DNA from: an uncultured bacterium
Lineage (GTDB): Bacteria; Krumholzibacteriota; Krumholzibacteriia; LZORAL124-64-63
NCBI GenBank assembly: GCA_963727525.1
Contig: CAVSGO010000007.1
Coordinates: 1,280,001-1,344,000 of the forward strand
Length of the DNA: 64,000 nucleotides
Direction: 5' to 3'
Positions 22,873-27,349 of the stretch are shown piece by piece (position 1 is the first letter of the stretch; each line of letters starts with the position of its first letter). Both the position numbers and the translations under genes were made by a program. Under the pieces are notes generated by a model that was not told the DNA's origin, did no database searches, and saw only the letters and a program-made list of their open reading frames with translations.

Positions 22873-23862
22873 ATGTTCGACAAGCAACGCCTGACCCTGG
22901 TCCGTCGTATGGTGATTGCGTGCACGGTGATCGGGTGCGTGGTGATCGCGGTGGTCGGGGTCGCTGCTGCCCAGGTTGCTCCGGTTGCTCCCCAGGCGAA
23001 TGCGGCGCCCCAGGACACCACCAGGGAAAAGACGTTCAATCTCTCGACGTCGCAGACCGCCGCGGTCGAGGCCGAGAAGGAAGAGACGCCCAGGGAGCGC
23101 TATGCCCCTCAGATCGAGGCCGGCAAGCTCGAGATCGGCCTCAGCCTCGGCTTCATGAACCTCAACAAGCAGCTTCTCGCGCTCGATCGCCTCATCTACA
23201 AGACCACTGATGACGCGTTCTTCTACGCCGACGTGACCATCAATGCCAAGTCGGCGTTCACGCCCGTGATCCGTGCGGCGTACAATCTCAACTCCTGGTT
23301 CGCGCTCGAGGGTCAACTGAACTTCACGTTCTCGGACTACGACGCAACGCTGACGAATCGCTACAAGGTCAGTCCGGAAGGGCCCGGGAGCACGGGTCCC
23401 CAACTCGTCGATCCCAGCGGTCCGGACGCGGGCGCTTACGACGCGGAGCACCGTTCGGTCCTCGGCGTCATCGCGGATCTCAACGCGATCGTCTATCCGC
23501 TCAACCTGCATGGTTCGCGAATCAGCCACTGGCAACCGTACCTGACGGGCGGTGTCGGTCGCGCGAGCTATACCATGGACTCCAATTACACCAGCGATCC
23601 CGCGACGGCGTTCGACGCCAACCTCGGAGGCGGCATTCGCCTCATCGCCGATGACCTGATCAGCTTGCGCTTCGAGATCGTGCAGCACTTCCACACCATC
23701 GAGTTCGCACCGTCGGAGTACTTCGATATACGCAACTCGGGCACGGTCAAGGTGCCGAACTATCAGTTCGATCAGGCCGGCTACTACTCGCGCGTGACGT
23801 CGTACCCTTCGGAGTCGCTCGGCAGCCTGGTCTGGTCCGTGGGGATCGTCGGATCCTTCTAG
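22873..23862 (+). CDS. outer membrane beta-barrel protein (OmpA-like 8-stranded)
   Basis: AGGAG RBS, signal peptide, QPYLTGGVG and NLGGG strands, terminal F. Confidence 0.75.
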   Translation: MFDKQRLTLVRRMVIACTVIGCVVIAVVGVAAAQVAPVAPQANAAPQDTTREKTFNLSTSQTAAVEAEKEETPRERYAPQIEAGKLEIGLSLGFMNLNKQLLALDRLIYKTTDDAFFYADVTINAKSAFTPVIRAAYNLNSWFALEGQLNFTFSDYDATLTNRYKVSPEGPGSTGPQLVDPSGPDAGAYDAEHRSVLGVIADLNAIVYPLNLHGSRISHWQPYLTGGVGRASYTMDSNYTSDPATAFDANLGGGIRLIADDLISLRFEIVQHFHTIEFAPSEYFDIRNSGTVKVPNYQFDQAGYYSRVTSYPSESLGSLVWSVGIVGSF

Positions 23863-25388
23863 CTTCCCGCCGATCCGGCCCACCCCGGCAACGCCTCGCG
23901 GCGGAACTGCAGCGCGTCTCGCACGTGTGCGGCTCCGACCAGCGATTCCCCCTCGAGAGCCGCCGCCGTGCGCGCCACACGGCACGCCCGGAGTACCGCG
24001 CGTGGCGACAGGCCCAGAGGGCGGCGTGCCGCATCCAGATAGGCAAGCGCTTCGGCGTCCAGTCCGTAGGACGCCACGCGGCGACGTAGCGACCAGTGAG
24101 CCGGCGGTTCCCCGCTCGCCTGCAACAGTCGATGTGCGCGCACGAGACGCGACCCGAGACGGGCGAGGTCCAGCGGTGGCGCAGAGGCGTCGCCGATCGG
24201 CTCGTCCCCCATGTCGACACAGAGATCGAAGCGATCGAGGAGCGGTCCGGACAGGCGACCACGGTAGCGGGCCACCCGCGCGGGCGGGCACGTGCAGGCA
24301 CGGATCCGGCTGCCCAAATACCCACAACGGCAGGGGTTCATCGCCGCGACCAGCTGGAAGCGCGCCGGGTAGCGGCGCCGCCCCGGTCCCCGGGCCACCC
24401 GGACCATCCCCTCCTCCAGCGGTTCGCGCAACGCATCCAGCGCCGCGGCGGAGAACTCGGCCGTCTCGTCGAGGAAGAGCACTCCGCGGTGCGCGAGCGT
24501 CACCTCGCCCGGGAGCAAACGGGTGCCGCCTCCGACGAGGCCGGCCACCGTGATCGAGTGATGCGGCGCCCGGAGCGGCGCGCGCCGCACGAGGCCGGGT
24601 GCCCGCAGCAATCCGGCCGCGCTATGGATGCGGGTCACCTCGAGTCCCGCATCCATATCCAGCGGCGGATGCAATGCCGCCACGAAGCGCGCCAGGCGCG
24701 TCTTGCCCACGCCGGGCGGCCCCACGAGCAGCAGATGATGGCCGCCGGTAGCCGCCAGGACAGCCGCCCGCGCGGCCAGCGGCTGGGCCGCCAGATCGAG
24801 ATCGGCGGGCAATTGCGGCCACGGAGGCGGCGACGTCGGCTCGCGGTGCGCCGCGGGAGCCGGCGGTACGCCGTCGAACCACCAGGATGCGGCCTCGCGT
24901 AGCGTGCGCACGCCGTGCACCTGCAGACCGGGCACCAGGGCTGCCTCCCAGGCCTGCGCTGCCGGGACCACCACGACATGATCGCCGCGAGCCGCCGCGT
25001 CGAGGACGATTCCGAGCAGCCCCCGCACCGGACGCACGTCGCCGAAGAGCGACAGCTCGCCCACGACGAGCGCCGACAGGTCCGGGACGGGCTGATGGTG
25101 CTCCCGCCGACGCTGAGCCGCAAGCACGGCCAGAGCGATGGCGAGATCGTGACACGCGCCTTCCTTGCGCACGTCGGCCGGCGCGAGGTTCACCGTCACC
25201 TTTCCCGATGGAAATGCGAAGCCGCTGTTGCGAATGGCGGCCAGCACGCGCTCTCGGCTTTCCCTGACGGCCGTATTGGGCAGGCCGACGAGATGAAAGG
25301 CCGGTAGCCCGCGCGCGATGTCGACCTCGACCCGCACGGCGTAGCCCGTGATCCCCACCAGTCCACCGGATCGAACGTCGCACGTCAC
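23859..25388 (-). CDS. comM: YifB/ComM Mg-chelatase-like AAA+ ATPase
   Basis: VGLP..AVRESRERV, NLAPAD.RKEG, GPPGVGKT, PHHS, LAHRGVLFLDE, AAMNPC.CG, SGPLLDRFD; GGGAGG-N5-GTG start. Confidence 0.93.
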   Translation of the reverse strand: MTCDVRSGGLVGITGYAVRVEVDIARGLPAFHLVGLPNTAVRESRERVLAAIRNSGFAFPSGKVTVNLAPADVRKEGACHDLAIALAVLAAQRRREHHQPVPDLSALVVGELSLFGDVRPVRGLLGIVLDAAARGDHVVVVPAAQAWEAALVPGLQVHGVRTLREAASWWFDGVPPAPAAHREPTSPPPWPQLPADLDLAAQPLAARAAVLAATGGHHLLLVGPPGVGKTRLARFVAALHPPLDMDAGLEVTRIHSAAGLLRAPGLVRRAPLRAPHHSITVAGLVGGGTRLLPGEVTLAHRGVLFLDETAEFSAAALDALREPLEEGMVRVARGPGRRRYPARFQLVAAMNPCRCGYLGSRIRACTCPPARVARYRGRLSGPLLDRFDLCVDMGDEPIGDASAPPLDLARLGSRLVRAHRLLQASGEPPAHWSLRRRVASYGLDAEALAYLDAARRPLGLSPRAVLRACRVARTAAALEGESLVGAAHVRDALQFRREALPGWAGSAGS

Positions 25389-25563
25389 GCTCACCTCCCA
25401 GATCCGACGGCCCGGAGCAAGGCGAGGTCCAGTTGCGCGTGTCGGCGATGGAGGGGCGGGAAGGCTCGATAGCGGGAGGCGATGGGCGCGGGGCCGTATC
25501 CGCGGCGCGGCGACGCGCGCCGTCACCGCCGGGCGACGCGGCCGGTCCGGATCGTCAACGTCG

Positions 25564-25626: not shown

Positions 25627-25797
25627 CTAGAGATCCTGCGGGCGCACCGTCTTGCGACCGTTGGCGACTGCGCGCTCCTCGGCCTTGGCGATCAGCTGAC
25701 GCACCTTGGCGTCGAGGGCATCGTAGAATTCACCGGACACGTTACACTCGCGAACTGCTTCCTTCGTCTTCGTCTTGCTGATGATCATCTCGGCCAT
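25627..25797 (-). CDS. bacterial histone-fold protein (56 aa; short alpha3-truncated type)
   Basis: MAEMIISKTKTKEAVRECNVSGEFYDALDAKVRQLIAKAEERAVANGRKTVRPQDL; RKT-x4-D L2 motif; SD AAAGGGAGG 7 nt upstream; absent from the ORF track (<60 aa). Confidence 0.9.
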   Translation of the reverse strand: MAEMIISKTKTKEAVRECNVSGEFYDALDAKVRQLIAKAEERAVANGRKTVRPQDL

Positions 25798-25981
25798 GAG
25801 GGATCCTCCCTTTGTACGTGATTCCGGGCGCTATCGGCGCAATGCCGGCCAGAAGCGTGCCGGCACACGATCGCGCCGACCTCTGGGGCTGTCAAGGCAC
25901 CATTTGCCAATCCGCGCCGCCTGGAGCATCCTGTGACCGTGCACCCGACATTCGCCGCACGATCCCGCAAGGAGCCTCAAG

Positions 25982-27349
25982 ATGAGCATCGACAAGGTCC
26001 TGGCCTATCTCGACACCCACGCTGACAGCCACGTCGATCAGCTCTGCACGTGGCTGCGCATCCCCTCGATCAGTTCGCTCGCCGACCACCGACCGCACGT
26101 TGAACGCGCAGCCGCCTTCGTGGCCGATGAGTTGCGTGCGCTCGGCCTTGGCGTGGACGTCATCACCGGCGACGGCAATCCCCTCGTGTACGCCGAGACC
26201 GAGCAACGCCCGGACCGGCCCACCCTGCTGTTCTACGGACACTACGACGTGCAACCCGTCGATCCGCTACCGCTGTGGACCAGTCCGCCCTTCGAACCGG
26301 TGGTGAAGGACGGCATCGTCTATGCGCGTGGCGCGAGCGACGACAAGGGCCAGCTCTACGCGCACGTCAAGGCGGTCGAAGCGTATGTGAAGACCGGGAC
26401 CCAGCTCCCCGTGAACGTGAAGTTCATCATCGAGGGCGAGGAGGAGTGCGGCGGCCATACTATCTACGCGTACACGGAGCAGCATGCCGACCGCCTCGCG
26501 TGCGATGCCGTGGTCATCAGCGACACCACGCTCTACAACGAGAAGACGCCGGCGATCTGCTACTCGCTCAAGGGCCTCACGTACATGGAGGTCCGCCTCA
26601 CCGGTCCCGCCAAGGATCTGCACTCCGGAAGCTATGGCGGCGTGGTGCAGAATCCCGCCAACGCGATGAGCACGATCATCGCAGCGCTGAAGGACGGGCA
26701 AGGGCGATGCCGCGTCCCCGGCTTCTACGACGACGTCGTCGCGCTCGATGACGACGAGCGCGCGGCGTTCGCGCGGCTGCACTACACCGACGACATCCTG
26801 CGCGACGAGACCGGCGCGCCGGCCGCATTCGGAGAGACCGGATTCACGACGCTCGAGCGCATGTGGGCGCGGCCGACCTGCGACGTCAACGGCCTCGCCA
26901 GCGGCTACGATGGCGAGGGCGCCAAGACCATCATCCCTGCCACGGCCATGGCGAAGGTGAGCATGCGCCTGGTGCCCGATCAGGATCCCGAGAAGATCGC
27001 GGCCGCGTTCACCGACTACGTGCGCTCCGTGTGCCCTCCGGGCGTGGTCTGCGAGATCGAGAACCTGCACAACGCGAGCCCGGTGCTGGTACCGCGCGAC
27101 TCGTCCCTGATGCAGGCCGGTCGACGCGCGTTGCAACACGGCTTCGGCGCCGAACCCGTGTTCATCCGCGAGGGCGGCAGCATTCCGATCGTGGGGACGT
27201 TCCAATCCTGCCTGCGGGTTCCGGTCCTGCTGCTCGGATACGGCCTCTCCACCGACAACATCCATAGTCCAAATGAGAAGTTCGATCTGGTGAATTTCCG
27301 CGCGGGCGCGCGAACCACCGCCCATCTCCTCCAGGAGGCCGCGAGCTGA
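25982..27349 (+). CDS. M20/M25/M40 family dipeptidase
   Basis: YGHYDVQP, RGASDDKG, EGEEE, DLHSG, GGSIP, HSPNE; AAGGAG RBS. Confidence 0.93.
   Translation: MSIDKVLAYLDTHADSHVDQLCTWLRIPSISSLADHRPHVERAAAFVADELRALGLGVDVITGDGNPLVYAETEQRPDRPTLLFYGHYDVQPVDPLPLWTSPPFEPVVKDGIVYARGASDDKGQLYAHVKAVEAYVKTGTQLPVNVKFIIEGEEECGGHTIYAYTEQHADRLACDAVVISDTTLYNEKTPAICYSLKGLTYMEVRLTGPAKDLHSGSYGGVVQNPANAMSTIIAALKDGQGRCRVPGFYDDVVALDDDERAAFARLHYTDDILRDETGAPAAFGETGFTTLERMWARPTCDVNGLASGYDGEGAKTIIPATAMAKVSMRLVPDQDPEKIAAAFTDYVRSVCPPGVVCEIENLHNASPVLVPRDSSLMQAGRRALQHGFGAEPVFIREGGSIPIVGTFQSCLRVPVLLLGYGLSTDNIHSPNEKFDLVNFRAGARTTAHLLQEAAS

Follow-up and report, generated by a model that had tools for sequence, protein, structure and literature searches.

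A conserved gene for a 56-residue histone of the face-to-face type in an uncultured member of the Krumholzibacteriota

Does a minus-strand reading frame of only 56 codons in a bacterial contig encode a histone, and if so, to which kind of histone does the product belong? The question was raised by a stretch of 64,000 nucleotides (hereafter the window, meaning the whole stretch of DNA that was analysed) from a genome of the Krumholzibacteriota, an uncultured phylum of the FCB group. To our knowledge bacterial histones have been characterised in a few organisms only, namely Bdellovibrio and Leptospira, with some expression data elsewhere. The original prediction placed a 56-residue histone gene at this position, and the ATG-to-TAG frame found there encodes exactly the protein that had been quoted. 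Third codon positions were mostly G or C, as had also been stated (GC3 0.80, with GC1 0.63 and GC2 0.39), in a window of 68.6% GC. A frame of 56 codons is by itself not beyond chance in 69% GC DNA, and the ORF listing has 49 ORFs of at least 30 residues overlapping the surrounding 4.5 kb. As ORFs this short are frequent by chance, the status of the gene rests on homology, purifying selection, synteny and the conservation of its start, Shine-Dalgarno sequence and length.

Orthologous loci were taken as the best 80 of 181 confirmed stretches, obtained by scanning one genome per species, and the window was added to give 81. The gene measured 56 codons in 80 of these 81 loci and had an ATG at the aligned start position in 72. 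For the substitution analysis 71 genes were kept that align over residues 1-56, begin with ATG and are 171 nt long, and 10 were dropped. Median dN/dS was 0.17 and the maximum 0.76 (dS was defined for 2284 of the 2485 pairs), with a median pS of 0.50 versus a median pN of 0.13. Conservation of the ORF in relatives, the lack of which the original prediction had named beforehand as a reason to give it up, was thus present, and the frame is a real gene, conserved and under purifying selection.

The antisense strand carries a longer ORF of 157 residues, which was stop-free in 70 of the 71 orthologues. Open antisense frames are usual opposite GC-rich genes. As a true gene this ORF was excluded by the dN/dS pattern and by the homology of the histone frame. 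Since synonymous change is far above non-synonymous change in the histone frame, it is this frame that is the coding one. The gene had been called hidden and missed by the ORF track. It is indeed absent from that track because it is shorter than 60 residues, and the length-filtered track shows the antisense ORF instead; the word hidden overstates the case, since orthologues are already annotated in public databases, by JGI as 'histone H3/H4' and by NCBI as 'DUF1931 domain-containing protein'.

The positions of the signals around the gene are given in Table 1. The near-perfect Shine-Dalgarno sequence described beforehand, AAAGGGAGG, was found with the expected N7 spacer, and GGAG or GAGG occurs at -18 to -4 in 73 of the 81 orthologous loci (the best 80 of 181 plus the window). 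Further upstream lies a promoter-like element with a perfect -35 TTGACA and a weak -10-like GATCGT; a consensus promoter scan of the histone locus returned 0 sites. The arrangement of TTGACAGC, about 15-17 nt and then GA(C/G)(G/C)AT was seen in 6 of 40 upstream regions examined (the window and loci L007, L026, L030, L038 and L045), where it sits about 70-80 nt 5' of the start codon, and the other loci differ upstream.

On the downstream side, the hairpin that had been noticed from the sequence proved to be strong. The 91-nt region containing it folded at -51.3 kcal/mol with z = -3.63, and 0 of 200 shuffles were as stable. The hairpin has no T-run and a consensus terminator scan of the histone locus gave 0 sites. 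Of 79 loci, drawn from the best 80 of 181 plus the window, 75 have a hairpin of at least -20 kcal/mol in the first 100 nt after the gene, and in 56 of the 79 z is below -2 against mononucleotide shuffles; the hairpins differ in sequence from locus to locus and are often followed by a T-run. The hairpin of the window is a probable terminator without a T-run, and this organisation suggests that the histone gene is a monocistronic unit with its own terminator.

Codon usage was assessed with 27 ribosomal, EF and RpoA genes of contig C5 as the reference versus 2384 long ORFs. The LLR of the histone gene was 0.013, compared with a ribosomal mean of 0.014, and its CAI was at the 45th percentile; codon selection is weak in this genome. 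As the gene reached only the 86th percentile of random 55-codon windows despite its ribosomal-like value, codon usage speaks neither for nor against high expression. Judged from sequence, the conserved strong Shine-Dalgarno sequence, the dedicated terminator and the promoter-like TTGACA-N17-GATCGT would fit, but do not show, good expression of the kind that the original prediction had suggested.

Table 1. Positions of the features at the histone locus (window numbering) and of the HU/IHF genes in the host genome (contig and position)
Feature	Position	Strand	Basis and remarks
CDS of the alpha3-truncated, face-to-face-type histone, 56 codons + TAG	25627..25797	(-)	ORF, translation, homology, conservation
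Shine-Dalgarno AAAGGGAGG	25805..25813	(-)	Direct reading; 7 nt before the ATG at 25797..25795
Promoter-like element, inferred	25867..25895	(-)	TTGACA 25895..25890, 17-nt spacer, GATCGT 25872..25867; read by eye
GC-rich hairpin, 13-bp stem, 3-nt loop	25564..25592	(-)	Folding; 35 nt past the stop codon
Antisense shadow ORF, 157 aa	25348..25821	(+)	ORF listing; covers the histone gene fully
YifB/ComM-family AAA+ gene, Mg_chelatase/ChlI domains	23859..25526	(-)	Pfam; downstream of the histone gene
M20-family peptidase gene	25982..27349	(+)	Pfam; upstream of the histone gene, divergent
HU/IHF genes of the host genome	C5:494180-494446, C7:1024754-1025023, C5:762573-762839, C6:221720-222004		PF00216

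The gene stands between a ComM homologue and a divergent M20 peptidase gene, beyond which Pfam identified a Fur-family regulator gene. Neighbours were counted in loci drawn from the best 80 of 181, up to a distance of 2.5 kb and where at least 1.5 kb of flank was present on the side in question. A same-strand ComM homologue followed the histone gene in 59 of the 69 loci with enough downstream sequence, and a divergent M20 peptidase gene lay upstream of it in 54 of the 71 with enough upstream sequence. Both neighbours were missing at L076-L085, which are the ten most diverged loci. For the ComM/YifB gene the listed start is a GTG, which places about 45 Pro/Arg-rich residues ahead of the first Pfam domain, and this domain begins at residue 66. 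In relatives, tblastn matches to ComM start about 200-300 nt past the histone stop, and the true start of the gene is probably further downstream than the listed one, near 25390.

ComM/YifB is a DNA helicase that functions in recombination and transformation. Its frequent position next to the histone gene could be taken to mean that the 56-residue protein is a specialised histone-fold protein tied to ComM/YifB and not a general chromatin protein. We consider this very improbable. The strong hairpin between the two genes, which recurs at nearly all loci, argues for separate transcripts, and the M20 peptidase gene is kept about as often as ComM, so that the adjacency looks like a clade-wide gene order. 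Moreover, the loci lacking both neighbours come from records titled as other phyla, and the solved relatives of the protein are general DNA organisers. Because of the intervening terminator-like hairpin and the missing neighbours at the distant loci, we take the histone-ComM-M20 adjacency to reflect conserved gene order rather than an operon.

Next to the genomic evidence stands the homology of the protein itself. When the single sequence was searched with phmmer against PDB chains, 9F2C chain A (HTkC) was the best match with an E-value of 2.2e-9, 8FVX and 8CMP (HBb) had about 1.8e-5 and 9QT0 (HLp) 7e-3, and HMfB was not listed. A family profile built from 30 close relatives gave 9F2C at 1.4e-14 and 57.2 bits, HBb at 1.1e-5 and 28.7 bits and HLp at 1.1e-5, with HMfB at an E-value of 0.35. 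8FVX and 8CMP are structures of Bdellovibrio Bd0055/HBb and 9QT0 is the HLp of Leptospira perolatii, while HTkC is described in the consulted part of PMC11390915 as a face-to-face histone of Thermococcus kodakarensis. The expectation that the protein would be nearest to face-to-face histones such as HTkC was borne out, 9F2C leading both PDB searches.

An AlphaFold2 model, made with a 75-sequence alignment, reached a pLDDT of 88 and has alpha1 at residues 8-14 and alpha2 at residues 22-45, with the alpha3 helix absent. In a Foldseek search against the PDB the nine best matches were chains of HTkC, HBb and HLp with TM-scores of 0.80-0.91, and classical histone-fold proteins ranked after these alpha3 histones with about 0.45-0.59. 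Both results agree with the histone fold that had been predicted, with its short alpha1 and long alpha2. Among 5.8 billion proteins 94 relatives were found at 66-100% identity, 58 of them exactly 56 residues long and 14 of 53 residues, and those named at NCBI derive from MAGs of Ca. Krumholzibacteriia or Eisenbacteria. Loop L1 has a cysteine, C18 (25744..25746, minus strand; E-C-N-V-S), which 90% or more of the 30 close relatives share and which is replaced in more distant ones.

The HMM check that the original prediction had proposed, against PF00808 and DUF1931, gave a weak match to each model. PF09123 (DUF1931) scored 19.8 bits against a gathering cut-off of 21.8 and covered model positions 20-53 of 138 only, and PF00808 (CBFD_NFYB_HMF) scored 17.3 bits against 21.4. 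Both scores are under the curated cut-offs, which alone is not decisive. A search of NCBIfam with the 56-residue protein matched no family. As the gathering thresholds of Pfam miss this subfamily, surveys that rely on them would under-count bacterial histones.

DUF1931 is still the best Pfam match and the name given to orthologues by NCBI, and the antisense frame is open in nearly every orthologue. From these observations it could be argued that the protein is a non-DNA-binding histone fold like the DUF1931 pseudodimers, or that there is no histone gene and the antisense ORF is real; we find this pair of readings scarcely credible. The DUF1931 match is partial and under the cut-off and the protein is a single fold of 56 residues, not a pseudodimer. 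It retains the RKT/RD-clamp loop and the lysines of alpha1. The antisense ORF is opposed by the substitution pattern in the histone frame, by the Shine-Dalgarno sequence and ATG which that frame has of its own, and by the commonness of open antisense frames in GC-rich genes. The nucleosomal archaeal (HMf-like) class did not fit either: there is no alpha3 helix, the PF00808 score is below its cut-off and HMfB was matched by the profile only at the E-value given above.

With these classes set aside, the alpha3-truncated histones come into view. According to the part of PMC11390915 that was consulted, alpha3 is cut to 3-4 residues in these proteins and alpha2 is 4-5 residues shorter than in nucleosomal histones. 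In the AlphaFold2 model alpha2 has 24 residues. The chain has one residue beyond the clamp Asp, and in the alignment its end coincides with that of HLp. The earlier placement in the alpha3-truncated class therefore stands, no helix following alpha2 and the C-terminus being aligned with that of HLp. This HLp-like ending directly behind the Asp agrees with a functional role of the C-terminal carboxylate.

Within this class, the consulted part of PMC11390915 describes face-to-face histones as closed tetramers with a conserved Arg and Asn (logo R48 and N52) preceding the RxTxxxxD loop, and 'bacterial dimer' histones as being without these two residues. According to the accessible part of bioRxiv 10.64898/2025.12.06.692711, the R45A exchange converts the HTkC tetramer to a dimer, and R45 is bonded to the carboxylate at the C-terminus of the facing dimer. 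For the HLp tetramer, the accessible part of PMC12701072 reports contacts of R49, S52 and N53 with F63, T61 and R55, and an R55-D62 clamp. In the 56-residue histone R42 and N46 align with the face-to-face Arg and Asn positions (logo R48/N52; HTkC R45; HLp R49/N53). The HLp residues R49/S52/N53 and F63/T61/R55 align with R42/A45/N46 and L56/Q54/R48, and the clamp is R48-D55. The RKT-x4-D hallmark pointed out in the original prediction is present in loop L2 as R48-K-T50-V-R-P-Q-D55, that is, as the RxTxxxxD motif with its RD clamp. In 75 relatives, reaching down to 45% identity, T50 was invariant and K12, L28, A39, R42, A43, N46, R48, D55 and L56 were conserved in at least 90%; R42 and N46 were invariant among the 30 close relatives.

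Models of the oligomer had also been called for. Four copies of the protein, modelled together, reached scores of 0.88-0.89 over three runs, compared with 0.13 for the best control, where the score covers the contacts of one chain and closure of the torus on both faces is not directly visible. The runs agreed in at least 97% of contacts and the partner pLDDT was at least 91. In the calibration, which used two-copy models only, 20 of 30 solved homodimers and 1 of 23 single chains came up to the mark applied to complex models. In the four-copy model residues 2-56 of the scored chain form a handshake with one neighbour, and residues 41-42, 45-46, 48 and 52-55 contact another. A handshake dimer and a dimer-dimer contact are thus predicted, and the modelled contact is the published face-to-face interface. 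This pass may stem partly from solved face-to-face tetramers that the model had learned.

The protein could alternatively be a dimer-only alpha3 histone like HBb/Bd0055, which would bend or coat DNA and form no torus. In its favour, the structural search ranks HBb chains near the top (TM 0.83-0.88), the sequence match is clear, the MAE...SK N-terminus and the RKT motif are common to both proteins, and the tetramer is a prediction only. Against this, HBb has Ser and Asp where the 56-residue histone has the conserved R42 and N46, the profile ranks HTkC about 28 bits above HBb, and the four-copy model puts its confident dimer-dimer contact exactly at the R42 and N46 positions. We therefore judge a dimer-only histone to be unlikely. 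As all face-to-face features that could be tested were found in the protein and the other histone classes failed, it is a member of the published family: a good new example of the known face-to-face histones and not a new kind.

Taking the evidence together, we think it likely that the locus holds a real gene, present once and monocistronic, whose product is a tail-less histone of the alpha3-truncated, face-to-face class and would act as a chromatin protein. From the relatives HTkC and HLp, two chains would join as a handshake dimer, and two dimers would close into a torus. This contact would be made by R42 and N46 at the end of alpha2, by R48 in loop L2, which the R48-D55 clamp would hold, and by the C-terminal stub with L56 as its last residue. 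DNA would be bound non-specifically and wrapped on the positively charged rim of the torus, about 50-60 bp in relatives. The likely DNA contacts would be S7, K8, K10 and K12 of alpha1 and G22, K49 and T50 of the L1/L2 bridge. That the 56-residue histone would be tetrameric in solution and wrap DNA, how abundant it would be and what role it would have in the cell are points that we infer by analogy.

The gene is single-copy in the host genome (4.66 Mb in 8 contigs, 96.7% complete), and a genome-wide search found no other PF09123 or PF00808 match. The same genome has four genes of the HU/IHF family (PF00216) above the Pfam cut-off, so that the chief protein of the nucleoid may be another than the histone. 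It would be a nucleoid-associated chromatin protein that works beside the four HU/IHF proteins.

The distribution of the gene was determined in a species-level genome collection. Queried with the profile, 139 of the 208 genomes of the phylum had the histone; among those with a completeness of 90% or more and a contamination of 5% or less, the count was 87 of 125. Split by family, the counts were 82 of 90 for the host family (f1), 7 of 7 for f2, 19 of 23 for f4, 9 of 10 for f6 and 12 of 13 for f9, and low or zero for f3 (8 of 43), f5 (1 of 12), f7 (0 of 8) and f8 (0 of 1). A query with the single protein gave 35 of 41 genomes including the host genome, and 23 of 24 sampled in the same family. 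For the phylum of a genome titled Gemmatimonadota, just 6 of the 201 genomes sampled gave a histone match. Across much of the Krumholzibacteriota the gene persists, and elsewhere it is sporadic.

The titles of the records holding related loci were mostly Ca. Krumholzibacteriota or Krumholzibacteriia, and some read 'uncultured Fibrobacteraceae' or 'bacterium'. Loci L076-L085, L055, L059 and L065 are in records titled Methylomirabilota/NC10, Acidobacteriota, Gemmatimonadota or Eisenbacteria, and their histones are 67-79% identical to the 56-residue histone. In a tree of 65 hand-picked rows (the window, 29 of the 80 loci, 20 relatives and 15 representatives), histones whose records bear the titles of other phyla fall within the Krumholzibacteriota group (support 92/76); the tree is poorly resolved, with few columns and only 14 of 58 inner branches well supported. 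Horizontal transfer, mis-binning or loose record labels are possible explanations for these titles.

Several variants of the protein were noticed. Genomes of family f6 (L097, L098; G029:C10, G034:C1; also G039:C31) have a second, divergent paralogue of about 42% identity beside the orthologue, with a different N-terminus (MEMLLVGSK...). In the sister families f2, f4 and f9, which belong to the same class (L086-L091, L099-L102, L105), the match begins at residue 2-3 and has no Met, within an open frame of 62-186 residues. More distant relatives (P0099, P0101, P0130) have Lys/Ala/Arg-rich N-terminal tails ahead of the fold; the 56-residue histone is tail-less, the open frame of its gene being only 67 codons. 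The best profile matches include proteins of 115-123 residues with two tandem face-to-face-like folds (P0096, P0100, P0104, P0242-P0361), one of them named as coming from a Nanoarchaeota MAG, with an ANGRKT...D motif in each fold. Going by sequence, these look like fused pseudodimers that retain the DNA-binding loop, unlike classical DUF1931 proteins.

The claim that histones are little studied in this lineage is in line with our literature search, which found no paper joining 'Krumholzibacter' and 'histone'. The main texts of PMC11390915, PMC12701072 and PMC10627809 do not contain the term Krumholzibacter; their supplementary tables may list the phylum. What is mildly new is the host lineage, the high persistence of the gene there, its co-existence with HU/IHF and a likeness to HTkC above that to the solved bacterial histones; the known picture of face-to-face-type proteins is unchanged. 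The findings matter as a case of a face-to-face-type histone persisting phylogenetically in an uncultured phylum, and its co-occurrence with four HU/IHF genes would allow one to ask how a nucleoid is shared between such a histone and HU. More tentatively, and with considerable doubt, Krumholzibacteriota might be a further lineage, after Bdellovibrionota and Leptospirales, with a vertically kept core chromatin histone, here tail-less, torus-forming and HTkC-like, which would complement HU/IHF and would have been passed to scattered other phyla.

The known systems differ in how closely they resemble the 56-residue histone. Aquifex Aq_328 and Thermus 1WWI, which are DUF1931 (PF09123) pseudodimeric histones, are related to it through the histone fold. 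The consulted part of PMC12701072 says that such fused doublets are without the DNA-binding residues, whereas the present protein is a singlet which keeps the RKT loop and the lysines.

HBb/Bd0055 (8FVX, 8CMP, 9EZZ) has the same truncated fold, and besides the N-terminal residues shared with our protein it has a GRKTV loop with the RD clamp. According to published abstracts and the consulted part of PMC11390915, the HBb of Bdellovibrio bacteriovorus (PMC10627809) is dimeric and bends DNA, and it differs from the 56-residue histone at both tetramer positions.

HLp (9QT0-9QT2) is, like the 56-residue histone, a bacterial singlet, and the two align without gaps over 51 residues with a TM-score of 0.89-0.91. 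R49, N53 and R55 of HLp are matched by R42, N46 and R48, its clamp by R48-D55, and a hydrophobic C-terminal residue follows right after the Asp in both proteins, L56 in ours. The DNA-contact residues of HLp include S14, K15, K17, K21, T27, G29 and T57 according to the accessible part of PMC12701072; of these, S14, K15, K17, G29 and T57 are matched by S7, K8, K10, G22 and T50. However, S52 is replaced by A45, K21 by A14 and T27 by V20, HLp has 7 extra N-terminal residues, and the sequence similarity is much weaker than that to HTkC both with the single sequence and with the profile. The setting differs as well: the HLp gene has SMC and MAP as neighbours, not ComM and the M20 peptidase, and Leptospira is described in PMC12701072 as being without HU and Dps, whereas the Krumholzibacteriota host genome has four HU/IHF-family genes.

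HTkC differs in being an archaeal, thermophilic protein that stands alongside the nucleosomal HTkA/B, where the host genome here has HU/IHF instead. Its L1 is 4 residues longer and its alpha1 one residue shorter, and it has Glu in place of N46. An HTkC-like relative, P0230, has His at the position of the clamp Asp D55, and the alignment with HTkC itself ends before this position. In sequence, HTkC is nevertheless the closest of the solved structures, with 42% identity in the Foldseek alignment. Both proteins have the MAEM...KSK N-terminus, the EFYDAL opening of alpha2 and the GRKT loop, and the Arg that is essential for the HTkC tetramer, R45, is R42 here. By analogy with the near-identical relative P0230, the two would also share an equal aligned C-terminal end.
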